Assembly: GCA_965233195.1 (NCBI GenBank)
Contig: CBDDSB010000026.1
Coordinates: 210,901 to 274,900 of the forward strand
Length of the DNA: 64,000 bases
Source of the DNA: an uncultured bacterium
GTDB lineage: Bacteria; Pseudomonadota; Gammaproteobacteria; Burkholderiales; SG8-39
Reading direction: 5' to 3'
The stretch's first letter is position 1. Every line of letters begins with the position of its first letter. Below are positions 16,918 to 23,028 of the stretch, piece by piece. Below the pieces are notes generated by a model, which saw only the letters and a program-made list of their open reading frames with translations, searched no databases and was not told the origin of the DNA. The position numbers were made by a program, and so were the translations under genes.

Positions 16918-19900
16918 ATGCGTGCAACCCTCGCGGCGATTCCGCGGAAAGTCCGTTCGACAATCCGTCACATTGCGCGGTTAGCGCTGCCACTGTTTCT
17001 TTTCTCCGCCGCCGCGCCGGCGACGCAGGCAGCACCGACCGATTGCATCGGCGACAGCCTCGATGGCCGGATGTTCTGCAGGTCGAGCGTCCCGACGCCG
17101 TTCAGCTATGGCCTTTGCTACGAGAACGCCTCCGCTTTCTGGCGCGACAACGCGATGTGCTATGCACGCGGCGGCACGCCGGGGCCGAACGGCACCTGCC
17201 CGGGATCGACGCCGGACACCGAGGACAACGTCGCTCCCCGCGCCGCGCTGTATGCGTACTACTCGACCGGCGAGGCTTGCACGCTTTCGCTGGACACGGG
17301 CTGGGACGCGGTGCACAGCTCCAACTGGTGCTGGAACGCGAACGGGCCGGGCTACGAGGAGGGCTACGTCACTTTCAGCGTCCGCCACTTCGTCGCCTCC
17401 TGCGGGCAATCCGGCGGCCAGGTGCCGAGCACGGCGCTCAAGACCCGGCAGCTGCAGTGTTCGGTCGGCTATACGTACGCCTATACGTCAAGCGGCTGGC
17501 GCTGCGTACGGCCGATCGAGAGCTGCGACGGGTGCCCCGTGGAAGGAAACCCGATCACGCCGGGCACGGGCGTCAAGATCCAGACCGAGCTCGACTACCA
17601 GCACCCGCGCGGCCTCGAGCTCAGGCGCCACTACCACTCCTTCCGCTTCCACGAGCCCTACACGGAGACTCCGGGCGCGCACTCGGAGAATCACTTCGAC
17701 GCCGCCTGGCGCTCGAACTTCAACAAGCGCGTGATTCCGCTCACGCGCCCTCACGCAACCGCGGCGCTCGCGCTGCCGAGCGGAGACGTGCAGTACTTCG
17801 ACAACGCCGGCAACGAGATCCTGAACTACCGCGGCGCAAAGGCGCGGCTCGTCACTGTCGCGGGAGTTGGCTATTACTACCTCGGGGCCGACGAGGTGGA
17901 GTTCTACGGGACGGACGGGCGGCTGCGGTCGATCTCCAGGCGCACCGGCCAGGTTTTCACGCTTACCTATAGCGACGGCACCACCGGGCCGGGGGGTGGG
18001 TACGCGCTCGACGCCGAGGGAAATCCGACGGCGAAGCCGATGCCGGCGAACCTGCTGATTCGCGTCGCCGACGCGGCCGGCAACGCCCTTTCGTTCGGCT
18101 ACAACCTCGGCGGGCGCGTGGTTCGCGTCATCGATCCGGCTGGTGGCACCTACCTATATTCGTACGACCACAAGTCGAACCTGATCTCGGTCCGCTACCC
18201 GGACCTGACCACGCGTACCTACCTCTACAACGAGCCGGCGAACATGCTCGGCGGCTCGACCCTCCCTGCGGCCCTCACCGGCATCGTCGACGAGAACAAC
18301 GAGCGCTTCGCAACCTTCAAGTACGACGCGAGCGGCCGCGCGGTCGAGACCGAGCACGCGGGCGGCGCGCAGCGCTACCAGCTCACCTATAACGCCAACG
18401 GCACGACCAGCGTCACCGATCCGCTCGGCACCGTGCGCACGCACCAATTCCAGACGGTCGACGGGATCTCCCGCTTCGCGGGGACTTCGCAAGCGGGCGG
18501 CGCCGGGTTTTCCGCAGGCGTGCAGGCTCGCACGCTCGACGCGAGCGGCAACGTGTCCTCGCAGACCGACTTCAACGGGATCAAGACCTGCTACGCCTAC
18601 GATGCCGCGCGGAACCTGGAGACGGTGCGCGTGGAAGGGCTGCCTTCGGCCACGACCTGCACGAGCGTCATCGAGACTGGCGCCGCGCTGCCGGCGGGCA
18701 GCCGCAAGATCGTGACCGAATGGCACGCGCGCTGGCGCATTCCCCTGCGCGTTTCCGAGCCGGGAAGGCGCACAGCCTTCGCCTATCACGGCGACGGGGG
18801 AGATTGCGCGCCTGCAAGCGCGGTGATCGCCGACGGCTCCGCGCAAGGCGTGCCGATCGGCGTGGCCTGCACCAAGACCGAGCAGGCGACCAACGATTCG
18901 GCGACCGGCGCCCAAGGCTTCAATTCGACGCTGCAGGGATCGCCGAGGGAGTGGGCCTACACGTACGACACCGAAGGCAACGTCCTGACGATGAACGGCC
19001 CACGAACCGACGTTTCCGATGTCACGACCTACACCTACTACCCGAATAGCGATCCAGAGCCCGCGAAGCGCGGCAACGTAGCGGCGATCGCGAATGCCGC
19101 CAACCACGCAACACAGATCACGGCCTACAACGCCCATGGGCGCCCGCTCACCATCATCGATCCGAACGGCCTTACCACGACCCTTACTTACGACGAGCGC
19201 CAGCGCCTGAAGACGCGCACTGTGGGCGTGGAACTGACGACCTACGACTACGACTTCGCGGGCCAGCTCACGAAGGTCACCCTGCCCGATGGGTCATTTC
19301 TCTCCTACACCTACGACGACGCCCACCGCCTCACTGGAATCGAGGACAACCTCGGCAACGACATCACCTACACGCTGGACGCGATGGGCAACCGCACTCT
19401 CGAGCAGGTGCGCGATCCGGCGAACGCGCTCGCGCAGACGCGCAGCCGCGTGTATTCGAACCTCAATCGCCTGTTCCAGGAACTGGGCGCGACCAGCCAG
19501 ACCACCGAGTACACCTACGACGACCAGGGCAACGTGCTCACGGTCAAGGACCCGCTCAACCGCGTCACGACCAACCAGTACGACGCGCTCAACCGGCTGA
19601 AGCAGGTGACTTCGCCGACACCGATCTCGGCCGTCACGCAGTACGCCTACAACGGCTTGGACGCCCTCACGAGGGTCACCGATCCGCGCAGCCTCGAGAC
19701 CAACTACGCCGTGGACGGCCTCGGCAACCTCAACGATCAAACGAGCCCCGACACCGGCACGACGACCAACGAGCACGACCCAGCGGGCAACCTCATCAAG
19801 CAGACCGACGCCAAGAGCCAGGAAACCACGTACGCCTACGACGCGCTCAACCGCGTCACGCTCATCACGTTCCAAGACGGCTCGAAGCAAACGTACGCCT

Positions 19901-21542: not shown

Positions 21543-23028
21543 CACGAGCACCACGTCCAACGCATTGGCGGTCTACCGTCGTTCCGCCGCTGCCGGGGAA
21601 CCCGCGTCGTATACATGGGGCATTGCCGGGGGCGCATTTGCGGTCGGCGGTATCCAGTCATTTTCCGGCGCTGATGCGGCAAGTCCGATCGACGTTGAGA
21701 GCGGGCAGAGCACCGCAAGCGCCACGGCGCACGACACGCCGAGCATCACCACGAGCGTTGCCAACACCATGCTGGTCACGGCCCACACCTACGCGTCGTC
21801 CAATAGTTGGACCCCACAAGTAGGCCTCACCGAAGGCTTCGACCGGCCAAGCGGCGCGAACAGCACCACAGGACAGTCGGTCACCGGCGGCTATCAGCTC
21901 AAGGCCGCGACCGGAGCATCGGGCGCGAAGCGCTCCACGGCCGGCGGCGGCGCCGATGTCGGCAACACCCACATCCTCGCGCTGCGCCCATTCGTCCCGA
22001 ACACACCGCCGACCGTGAGCCTGACGAGCCCGGCGAACGGCTCGACATTCACCGCGCCCGCGAGCATCACGCTCACTGCCACCGCCGCCGACTCCGACGG
22101 CACGATCCAGAAAGTGGAGTTCTTCCACGGCGGCACCAATCTCATCGCCACCGTCAACACGGCGCCGTACACCTTCCCCTGGACAGGGGTGCCGCAAGGC
22201 TCGTATGTGCTGACCGCGGTAGCCACCGACAACCAAACCGCGACCACGACTTCAGCGCCGGTGAACGTGACGGTGCAAGCGGTGGTTGCGCTCTATTTTG
22301 TCGAAGTCGATCATCTCAACACGCCGCGCCTTGTCGCCAACTCGTCAGGCACGCCGGTGTGGCGCTGGGATCAGCAGGAGCCGTTCGGGGTCAACGTGCC
22401 GGATGAGAATCCGAGCGGGCTCGGTGTGTTTGAGCAGCCGCTGAGATTTCCGGGGCAGTACGCGGATAAGGAGACGAATCTCAATTACAACTACTTCAGG
22501 GACTACGACCCAGGCATTGGACGGTATCCGCAGAGTGATCCAATTGGACTTAAGGGTGGTCCAAACACATACGCCTACGTCGATTCCTCGCCGCTCCTTG
22601 GCGTAGACCCGCGTGGCTTGGTCAAGTGGAAGGGAACGGTCTTTTATCGTGGTACGGGGCCGATTGGCGGAGACATCTATCAGCTAATGTCCGAATGCAA
22701 GTGCGGGATTCAGTATTCGGTGGAGGTAAGAACATTGAATACGGGAACCTCTCGCGGATTCTCTTGGGTCGGGCAGCATATCGAGTTCGACGATCTTATG
22801 GACTGTCCCGATCCCGAAATGCTTGCAGGAGACTACTTAAACATCGGGCTCAGTGTGTCCGCCGGCCTCGGGGGTGGATTTGGTACAACTCTCCTAGGCG
22901 CCGCACAAAGTCCCGGTAGTTGGGGTTGGCAAATGGGATTCTCCGCCTCGGCAGGCCTCTCTGTTGGGAGATCCTGGTTGGAAATCAAGACTGCGATACC
23001 GTGTGGCCCTTGCTCTACACGTAAGTAA
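21391..23028 (+). CDS. Repeat domain + Ig-like domain + Rhs repeat-associated core + unrecognised C-terminal toxin domain
   Basis: Second, full copy of the domain lies at 21412-21990. An Ig-like module lies at ~22006-22275 ([41 protein letters not shown]...). The Rhs core reads [15 protein letters not shown]...[11 protein letters not shown]...[46 protein letters not shown]...DPRGL. A ~135-aa Gly-rich tail follows. The only in-frame start after the frameshift is TTG 21391, so independent translation is uncertain. Confidence 0.7.
   Translation: [545 protein letters not shown]

Follow-up and report, generated by a model that had tools for sequence, protein, structure and literature searches.

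A Rhs locus with shell and core-toxin on separate genes: an apparently conserved two-gene architecture and its probably decayed copy in an uncultured Burkholderiales bacterium

Rhs proteins, the Tc toxins apart, are regarded as one-chain cages, each folding around the toxin at its own C-terminus. Structural work on Rhs and Tc proteins has established that the core segment near the end of the chain closes the cage and cleaves the toxin, and in the solved Rhs structures this core forms the end of the cage chain and does not stand as a domain by itself. Here we describe a locus in which shell and core are encoded apart. It lies in a 64,000-nucleotide (nt) stretch of DNA from an uncultured bacterium of the Burkholderiales lineage SG8-39 (GenBank assembly GCA_965233195.1, contig CBDDSB010000026.1, positions 210,901 to 274,900 of the forward strand), which we refer to in its entirety as the window. 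Its first gene (gene 1) encodes a YD-repeat shell that stops where the core should begin, while the core and a toxin domain follow downstream, at the position occupied in homologous loci by a second gene (gene 2) with a signal peptide of its own.

Canonical single-chain Rhs proteins, exemplified by such type VI secretion system (T6SS) effectors as Tse5, RhsA, Tse15 and Tre23 (PDB 8cp6, 7q97, 8uy4 and 7pq5), share with this locus a YD shell with a DUF6531-like N-terminal element, a TIGR03696 core with YDP, DPIGL and DPxGL motifs, a polymorphic toxin and a downstream immunity gene, as well as orphan cassettes and a tip of low guanine-plus-cytosine (GC) content. They consist of one polypeptide, however, whereas shell and core are here assigned to two, each with a signal for the general secretory (Sec) pathway, and extra modules (domain A and Big_7) directly precede the core. 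Canonical T6SS Rhs genes also stand in a context of PAAR, VgrG and other T6SS genes, whereas none of these was found among the immediate neighbours of the locus, the rest of the window not having been screened gene by gene.

In the Tc cocoon formed by TcB and TcC (TcdB2-TccC3 and YenB-YenC2; PDB 4o9x and 4igl), a Rhs-type cage is likewise built from two gene products, and TcC, like gene 2, bears the core, an aspartyl protease and a variable toxin; its core matches that of gene 2 weakly (E 1e-4 to 1e-5). TcC contributes a large part of the shell, whereas gene 2 supplies only a plug of ~110 amino acids (aa), and RHS_repeat is missing from the precomputed Pfam lists of all of the best 120 gene-2 homologues (344-949 aa). 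The Tc system further comprises a TcA partner, a β-propeller and SpvB, whereas Pfam searches found neither SpvB nor propeller domains in the shell and no TcA-like gene was found adjoining the locus. To our knowledge, Tc subunits carry no Sec signals. The split Rhs may thus be called loosely analogous to TcB/TcC, its nearest precedent. Sec-dependent Rhs toxins, namely WapA of Gram-positive bacteria and those listed as a “T2SS/Sec” class (T2SS, type II secretion system) in Zhang et al. 2012 (PMC3482391), resemble it in an N-terminal signal that replaces the T6SS adaptor and in predicted surface-binding N-terminal domains; unlike the split Rhs, they are single polypeptides. Orphan rhs core-tip/immunity cassettes, known from the C-terminal displacement model, are comparable to the partial core, toxin and immunity copies found downstream in several homologous loci. 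Such cassettes are silent fragments, however, whereas gene 2 in the homologues is complete, with a start codon, a signal peptide, a whole core and coupling to the shell stop. The literature covered, incomplete as it is and including a term search of Zhang et al. 2012, held no description of a split shell/core Rhs with a separately exported core/toxin chain, so that this is apparently an undescribed form of Rhs.

The shell gene encodes a predicted secreted protein with YD repeats but no core (Table 1). Its product is annotated with exactly the same 1313 residues in the source NCBI record. The N-terminus, MRATLAAIPRKVRSTIRHIARLALPLFLFSAAAPATQA followed by AP, shows a basic n-region, a hydrophobic core and a cleavage-like site (ATQA/AP) after residue 38. 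The domain that follows contains exactly 12 cysteines and has no Pfam or NCBIfam match, and a counterpart with 33% identity lies upstream of the shell in another locus, L047 (loci and proteins of the comparison set are cited by L and P numbers). A GNPITPGTGVK motif opens the DUF6531-like segment at residue 210; the PF20148 match to this segment is sub-threshold (E 2.3e-4, 21.8 bits against a cutoff of 24.1 bits), and L001, L004, L006 and L074 have homologous shells for which this family is on record. The YD array comprises 11 RHS_repeat stretches (Pfam PF05593, E 1.3e-68) and also matches NCBIfam YD_repeat_2x and TIGR01643 (E 5.9e-52). Pfam and NCBIfam profile searches found no TIGR03696 core in this protein, which bears out the sequence-only reading of the DNA that preceded this analysis: a coreless shell with a Sec signal, 12 cysteines, the GNPITPGTGVK motif and a YD array. 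The same two databases gave no PAAR match at the shell N-terminus, where the signal peptide and the Cys-rich domain stand instead.

The missing core is located 1422 nt downstream and in the frame of the shell, as had been read from the sequence and as both open reading frame (ORF) and profile searches now confirm. In addition to TIGR03696 it matches positions 1154-1261 of the 1261-position NCBIfam model NF041261 (RHS_core), and its translation contains FRDYDP, SDPIGL and a final DPRGL. The core carries, on these motifs, the complete plug/protease set with DPxGL and is predicted to be an autoprotease. In solved Rhs cages its counterpart by alignment is the final ~105 residues before the C-terminal cleavage site (Tse5 8cp6_B 1018-1121 and 8h8a_A 1049-1151; also 7q97, 8uy4 and 7pq5), while the C-terminus of the shell aligns to repeats that end just before the core region, at approximately residue 1025-1044 of 8h8a. 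Because of these alignments, gene 2 is predicted to carry the cage-closing and toxin-cleaving segment of a single-chain Rhs.

The division between the two genes recurs among homologues. With the last 413 aa of the shell as query, the best 120 matches (49-83% identity) include 101 that end at the same ...GDIPVGVVQ position and seven fused Rhs proteins, such as P0138, in which 3-7 residues separate the shell-end motif from the core. A second, exhaustive search of 1.84 billion 50%-identity representatives returned 26,782 matches, among which the best match of 94 reaches the end of the query; 53 of these stop at the shell end (23 of the 53 being 1117-1532 aa long) and 41 continue past it for 18-483 aa, with one outlier of ~1,400 aa. 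Where both genes are visible, in 24 loci, a coreless shell is followed by a gene for signal peptide, core and toxin. The stop of the shell overlaps the start of gene 2 by 4 nt (ATGA or GTGA) in 21 of them, the others having spacers of 7 or 35 nt, and every full-length gene-2 homologue inspected starts with a predicted signal peptide. The family can be recognized by a shell ending in (Y/F)LGD(I/L)PV.V(V/I)Q-stop and a next gene encoding a signal peptide, a complete core and a toxin. The junction in the window and 23 other loci fit this signature; a gene 2 in a single frame, which also characterizes the family, is what the window copy lacks. The C-terminal domains vary among homologues, with Pfam matches to Ntox16, phospholipase A2-like, peptidase M15 and RNase families. 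Named homologues come mostly from Betaproteobacteria, as metagenome-assembled genomes (MAGs) of Burkholderiales and Rhodocyclales, and Noviherbaspirillum is a cultured example.

These counts argue that the split marks a bipartite form of Rhs which is conserved and occurs widely in metagenomes and MAGs, and that it is neither a recent insertion nor an error. They sustain, as a gene architecture, the two-polypeptide Rhs system that the sequence-only reading had offered as one of two explanations, and show that it is more general than was supposed there. That reading had also called for a comparison of related loci, and the comparison places the intervening DNA in a separate gene 2 while the shell stop is kept. 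Fused relatives such as P0138 indicate that the split arose at the shell/core boundary at some point. A third state, besides split and fused, is seen in P0208 and P0231, whose shells do not stop at ...VPVAVLQ but have ~100 aa more, a C-terminal domain other than the core.

Gene 2 of the window departs from its homologues in being broken. Intact homologues (P0003, 81% identical, P0007, P0016, P0030 and P0035) are single ORFs of 711-804 aa that encode, in order, a signal peptide, a segment of FRAAxSA repeats, two domain A units of ~195 aa, Big_7, the core and a variable C-terminal domain. The ORF that starts at the ATGA overlap in the window contains the signal peptide, the FRAAxSA repeat segment and a first domain A (mapped to 21027-21398 by tblastn) that is truncated at ~21390 and followed by an out-of-frame tail of 50 codons. 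The frame that carries the core differs from that of the ATG at 20856 and ends at 23028; since it is open only from 21223, the core-bearing ORF has no signal peptide. The source annotation accordingly lists separate proteins of 228 and 500 aa. Alignment with intact homologues traces the break to a 182-nt deletion inside the first domain A. As 182 mod 3 = 2, the loss shifts the frame and splits gene 2 into two ORFs, and because of this private deletion the core falls into the frame of the shell 1422 nt downstream. In intact homologues gene 2 is read in the -1 frame with respect to the shell, and the core is in the frame of gene 2, not of the shell.

Two earlier claims therefore hold only in part. 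The core and toxin had been placed at the end of a second secreted protein; the ORF at the ATGA does have a signal peptide, but it stops at 21540-21542 and never reaches the core. The frame shared by shell and core is present in the window, yet it is a by-product of the deletion and not a meaningful feature, being absent from intact homologues. Similarly, the statement that T6SS genes are absent and both proteins carry Sec signals stands for the shell N-terminus, which has no PAAR, and for the immediate neighbours, but not for the core ORF of the window. With its signal peptide cut off from core and toxin, gene 2 of the window has most likely become a pseudogene, and the locus is probably a decayed example with shell intact and gene 2 broken. 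Taken jointly, a conserved architecture and a pseudogenized gene 2 in the window are, in our judgement, highly probable. A collapse between the two domain A copies was considered as the origin of the deletion and rejected, both ends lying inside copy 1 and the length not being that of one repeat unit. Nor does the loss of 182 nt from within a single repeat copy look like a homopolymer error, and we give a low probability to the deletion itself being a sequencing or assembly artefact. Elsewhere in the window, a mandelate racemase/enolase-superfamily gene (25221-26259, minus strand) has a 1-nt frameshift in a C-run that breaks it in two (...RFIQP / DVGKWGGIS...), and is either a pseudogene or affected by a homopolymer sequencing error.

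Across loci the split point is fixed at the shell/core boundary, and the stretch between signal peptide and core differs: it holds no module at all, one to eight Big_7 domains, two domain A units with Big_7, or three domain A units. The minimal form is that of L075 (9914-11636), which consists only of signal peptide, core and toxin. Its shell, 37% identical to that of the window, ends in ...YIYLHDIPVAVVQ-stop, and 50 nt later begins a 238-aa gene 2 whose signal peptide is directly joined to LYFIHPDHLNTPR, the core and the toxin. Downstream lie a small ORF and then a 5'-truncated core-toxin orphan that lacks a signal peptide and has a small ORF of its own. In L004, from Noviherbaspirillum cavernae, a coreless shell is paired with a Big_7-repeat gene 2. 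The L004 shell (5672-9486) is called as two ORFs of 796 and 475 aa that overlap by 4 nt within continuous homology, which could reflect a frameshift or a further split, and a 120-aa ORF precedes its gene 2.

Partial orphan copies of core, toxin and immunity gene are found downstream in L001, L002, L003, L020, L030 and L075, and L001 also has two extra gene-2 copies, each set followed by small ORFs downstream. In the tandem arrangements of L020 (605-5809) and L022, the shell end is followed by a gene for four Big_7 domains, core and toxin and then by a second cassette, in which a 160-aa fragment of the shell 3' end leads through an ATGA overlap into a complete gene 2 of the domain A type. Recombination in the shell 3' end could, on this arrangement, swap whole gene-2 cassettes. 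L005 (10001-18193, on a 1.2-Mb contig) carries two genes for signal peptide, Big_7, core and toxin but has no Rhs shell within 10 kb; its shell gene may lie at another site, or the two proteins may function shell-free.

A mechanism that fits the gene order can be proposed. Gene 1 would provide a Sec-exported cage made of the Cys-rich domain, the DUF6531-like segment and the YD shell, stopping one strand before the core. Gene 2, translationally coupled to it through the ATGA overlap, would add its own signal peptide, optional surface modules, the core of ~110 aa and a polymorphic toxin, with the immunity gene next in line. Both chains would reach the periplasm unfolded, via Sec; there the core strands of the gene-2 product would fill in and seal the shell in trans, with the toxin shut inside, which autoproteolysis after DPRGL would release inside the cage, and the domain A and Big_7 modules would remain outside as a binding module. 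We lean, cautiously, towards such trans assembly of the two products outside the cytoplasm. Several points weigh against it. A periplasmic complex of ~230 kDa would still have to leave a Gram-negative cell. Genes of the Msh/T2SS-like kind, a conceivable route, stand beside only two of ~9 loci with long flanks and are not found in the window. The shell-less genes of L005 may mean that plug proteins are not in every case dependent on an adjacent shell, and the second frameshift, in the enolase-superfamily gene, leaves the quality of the window sequence not beyond doubt.

The gene-2 proteins might instead be autonomous secreted toxins that use the core as a self-cleaving release module, with the shell serving separately as an adhesin or scaffold and no closed cage being formed. 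L005 is what such proteins would look like, and adhesin-like modules on gene 2 itself point the same way, as do orphan gene-2 copies without a full shell of their own, although orphans of this sort are typical of silent rhs cassettes. Against autonomy stands the tightly conserved stop/start coupling, together with a split at the exact structural boundary of a cage whose terminal part, in solved Rhs, is the core; the minimal form, moreover, joins the signal peptide to the first core strand right beside a coreless shell. We consider this explanation improbable.

That errors of sequencing or assembly produced the split, or that ribosomal frameshifting at the junction yields a fused protein, has in its favour the 1-nt C-run frameshift in the enolase-superfamily gene and the -1 frame in which the ATGA overlap sets gene 2. 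The stop is nevertheless kept in over 100 independent assemblies, no slippery heptamer lies at the junction, spacers of 7, 35, 50 or ~500 nt create other frame relations at some loci, and a fusion protein would have no use for a conserved, cleavable signal peptide in its interior. Both variants are very unlikely, and a programmed ribosomal frameshift fusing shell and gene 2 was rejected on its lack of a slippery site, the variable spacers and frames and the conserved signal peptide.

That a mobile cassette flanked by a GGTGCAA direct repeat recently entered an intact single-chain rhs gene in this strain, the other explanation offered in the sequence-only reading, is refuted almost to the point of certainty because the split is conserved among homologues: a canonical ORF does result from deleting 20857-22278, there are fused relatives, and the window does contain the 7-nt repeat (at 20850 and 22272), but dozens of homologues at 50-85% identity have this stop, overlap and signal peptide too, the shared frame was made by the private 182-nt deletion, and the repeat is not kept, being missing from the Big_7/core junction in L001, L002, L017 and L025 and matched at six of seven positions in L003. 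We treat the repeat as chance; GGTGCAA occurs five times in the window, and by expectation the small windows searched would share ~0.02 such 7-mers.

A confident AlphaFold2 model of domain A is all-β, with 14 strands and a predicted local distance difference test score (pLDDT) of 85.8; when it was compared with the PDB by Foldseek, no match had E<0.01 and TM-scores did not exceed ~0.33. A signal peptide, FRAAxSA repeats and four copies of domain A also make up the N-terminal part of MshQ-like proteins of ~1600 aa that end in DUF6701 and sit in MSHA-type pilus clusters with MshE-like ATPases, MshG-like platform proteins, pseudopilins and a secretin (L007, L008 at 9563-14374, L009, L031-L034, L036, L037 and L039). 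MshQ has been proposed as the tip adhesin of the MSHA pilus, docking via its extreme C-terminus (PMC12918778). The signal peptide, FRAAxSA repeats and domain A of the MshQ-like proteins are homologous to those of gene 2, but in place of the C-terminal DUF6701 region, with its proposed minor-pilin dock at the extreme C-terminus, gene 2 has Big_7, the Rhs core and a toxin, and Pfam found no DUF6701 in gene 2 of the window. Domain A is therefore read as a putative borrowed binding module.

Two split-Rhs loci, L004 (1-5300) and L006 (13345-22646), adjoin homologous Msh-like clusters with ATPases 55% identical to each other, and carry different gene-2 N-terminal modules. In the window, tblastn with L004 and L006 sequences found no homologues of MshE, MshG or secretin. 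The pilus/T2SS link is a lead only. A more far-reaching proposal, that these loci form a large, undescribed Sec-exported two-component Rhs class of environmental Betaproteobacteria and relatives, with periplasmic co-folding of the empty cage and the plug-toxin chain, targeting modules borrowed from MshQ and deployment by an Msh/T2SS-like machinery and not a T6SS, is put forward tentatively and is in our view rather doubtful.

If assembly in trans is correct, a Rhs cage would be loaded and closed in the periplasm from two chains, which bears on how encapsulation works and on the engineering of cargo loading, and Gram-negative bacteria would have a T6SS-independent delivery route for Rhs toxins. 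A whole gene comprising targeting module, plug and toxin could be swapped as a unit while the cage gene stays constant, as is suggested by the orphan cassettes because they carry the shell 3' end. The MshQ-like modules and Msh-like clusters offer a concrete lead, open to testing, on how targeting or export might work. Genome annotators should take a coreless “YD repeat protein” and a short “RHS repeat-associated core” protein with a signal peptide as a pair and not as fragments.

Table 1 Features of the split Rhs locus, in window coordinates (position 1 is the first nucleotide of the window)
Feature	Position	Strand	Basis
Gene 1, coreless Rhs/YD shell protein, 1313 aa	16918..20859	+	ORF, ATG 16918, stop 20857-20859
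Shell Sec signal peptide (predicted), residues 1-38	16918..17031	+	Read from sequence
N-terminal 12-Cys domain, residues 43-206	17044..17535	+	Cys positions
DUF6531-like segment, residues 210-277, usual N-terminal element of Rhs shells	17545..17748	+	Pfam PF20148
ATGA overlap of shell stop and gene-2 start	20856..20859	+	Sequence; 4-nt overlap kept in 21/24 homologous loci
Gene 2, 5' fragment, 228 aa, stop 21540-21542	20856..21542	+	ORF; annotated in source record
Gene-2 signal peptide (predicted), MKTHFVRLILLSLAIAALPAQA followed by QIAF	20856..20921	+	Within 228-aa ORF
Junction of 182-nt deletion relative to intact homologues	21390..21391	+	MAFFT alignment with L003 and L001; columns 193-374 missing in window
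Domain A2, ~195-aa all-β module	21406..21993	+	AlphaFold2 model
Big_7 bacterial Ig-like domain	22009..22278	+	Pfam PF17957, E 3.4e-20; tblastn coordinates
Rhs repeat-associated core (predicted plug and aspartyl autoprotease)	22279..22620	+	TIGR03696, E 1.2e-20
C-terminal toxin domain (putative), 135 aa, Gly-rich, unclassified, stop 23026-23028	22621..23028	+	No family match
Candidate immunity gene, 107 aa, hydrophobic membrane-like segments	23038..23361	+	Position directly after toxin, low GC, hydrophobicity
Two small ORFs, 192 aa and 118 aa, low-GC island tip	23355..24367	+	ORFs, GC profile

Beyond the core, the toxin domain has no match in Pfam, NCBIfam or the PDB; it is 24% identical to the C-terminal domain of P0007. 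The 107-aa ORF behind it is unrelated to the immunity ORF that follows the distantly similar toxin of P0007. A small ORF occupies the same position in intact homologous loci, and the 107-aa ORF is likely, by this position, to be the immunity gene, while the 192-aa and 118-aa ORFs may be orphan immunity genes. None of the three belongs to a Pfam or NCBIfam family or has homologues in the fetched loci. The GC content drops from ~0.66 to 0.51-0.57 across 22300-24300, which covers the end of the core, the toxin and the three small ORFs; this island tip appears compositionally foreign, as is usual for exchanged Rhs tips.

Genes for malate synthase and panB flank the locus at one end and a gene for an Xth-type exonuclease flanks it at the opposite end, with TctC also near. 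A scan for promoters and terminators performed no better than on shuffled sequence, and the window contains no transfer RNA genes. A thiamine pyrophosphate (TPP) riboswitch (RF00059, 58 bits) far upstream, at 4563-4672 on the plus strand, is the sole Rfam match in the window.

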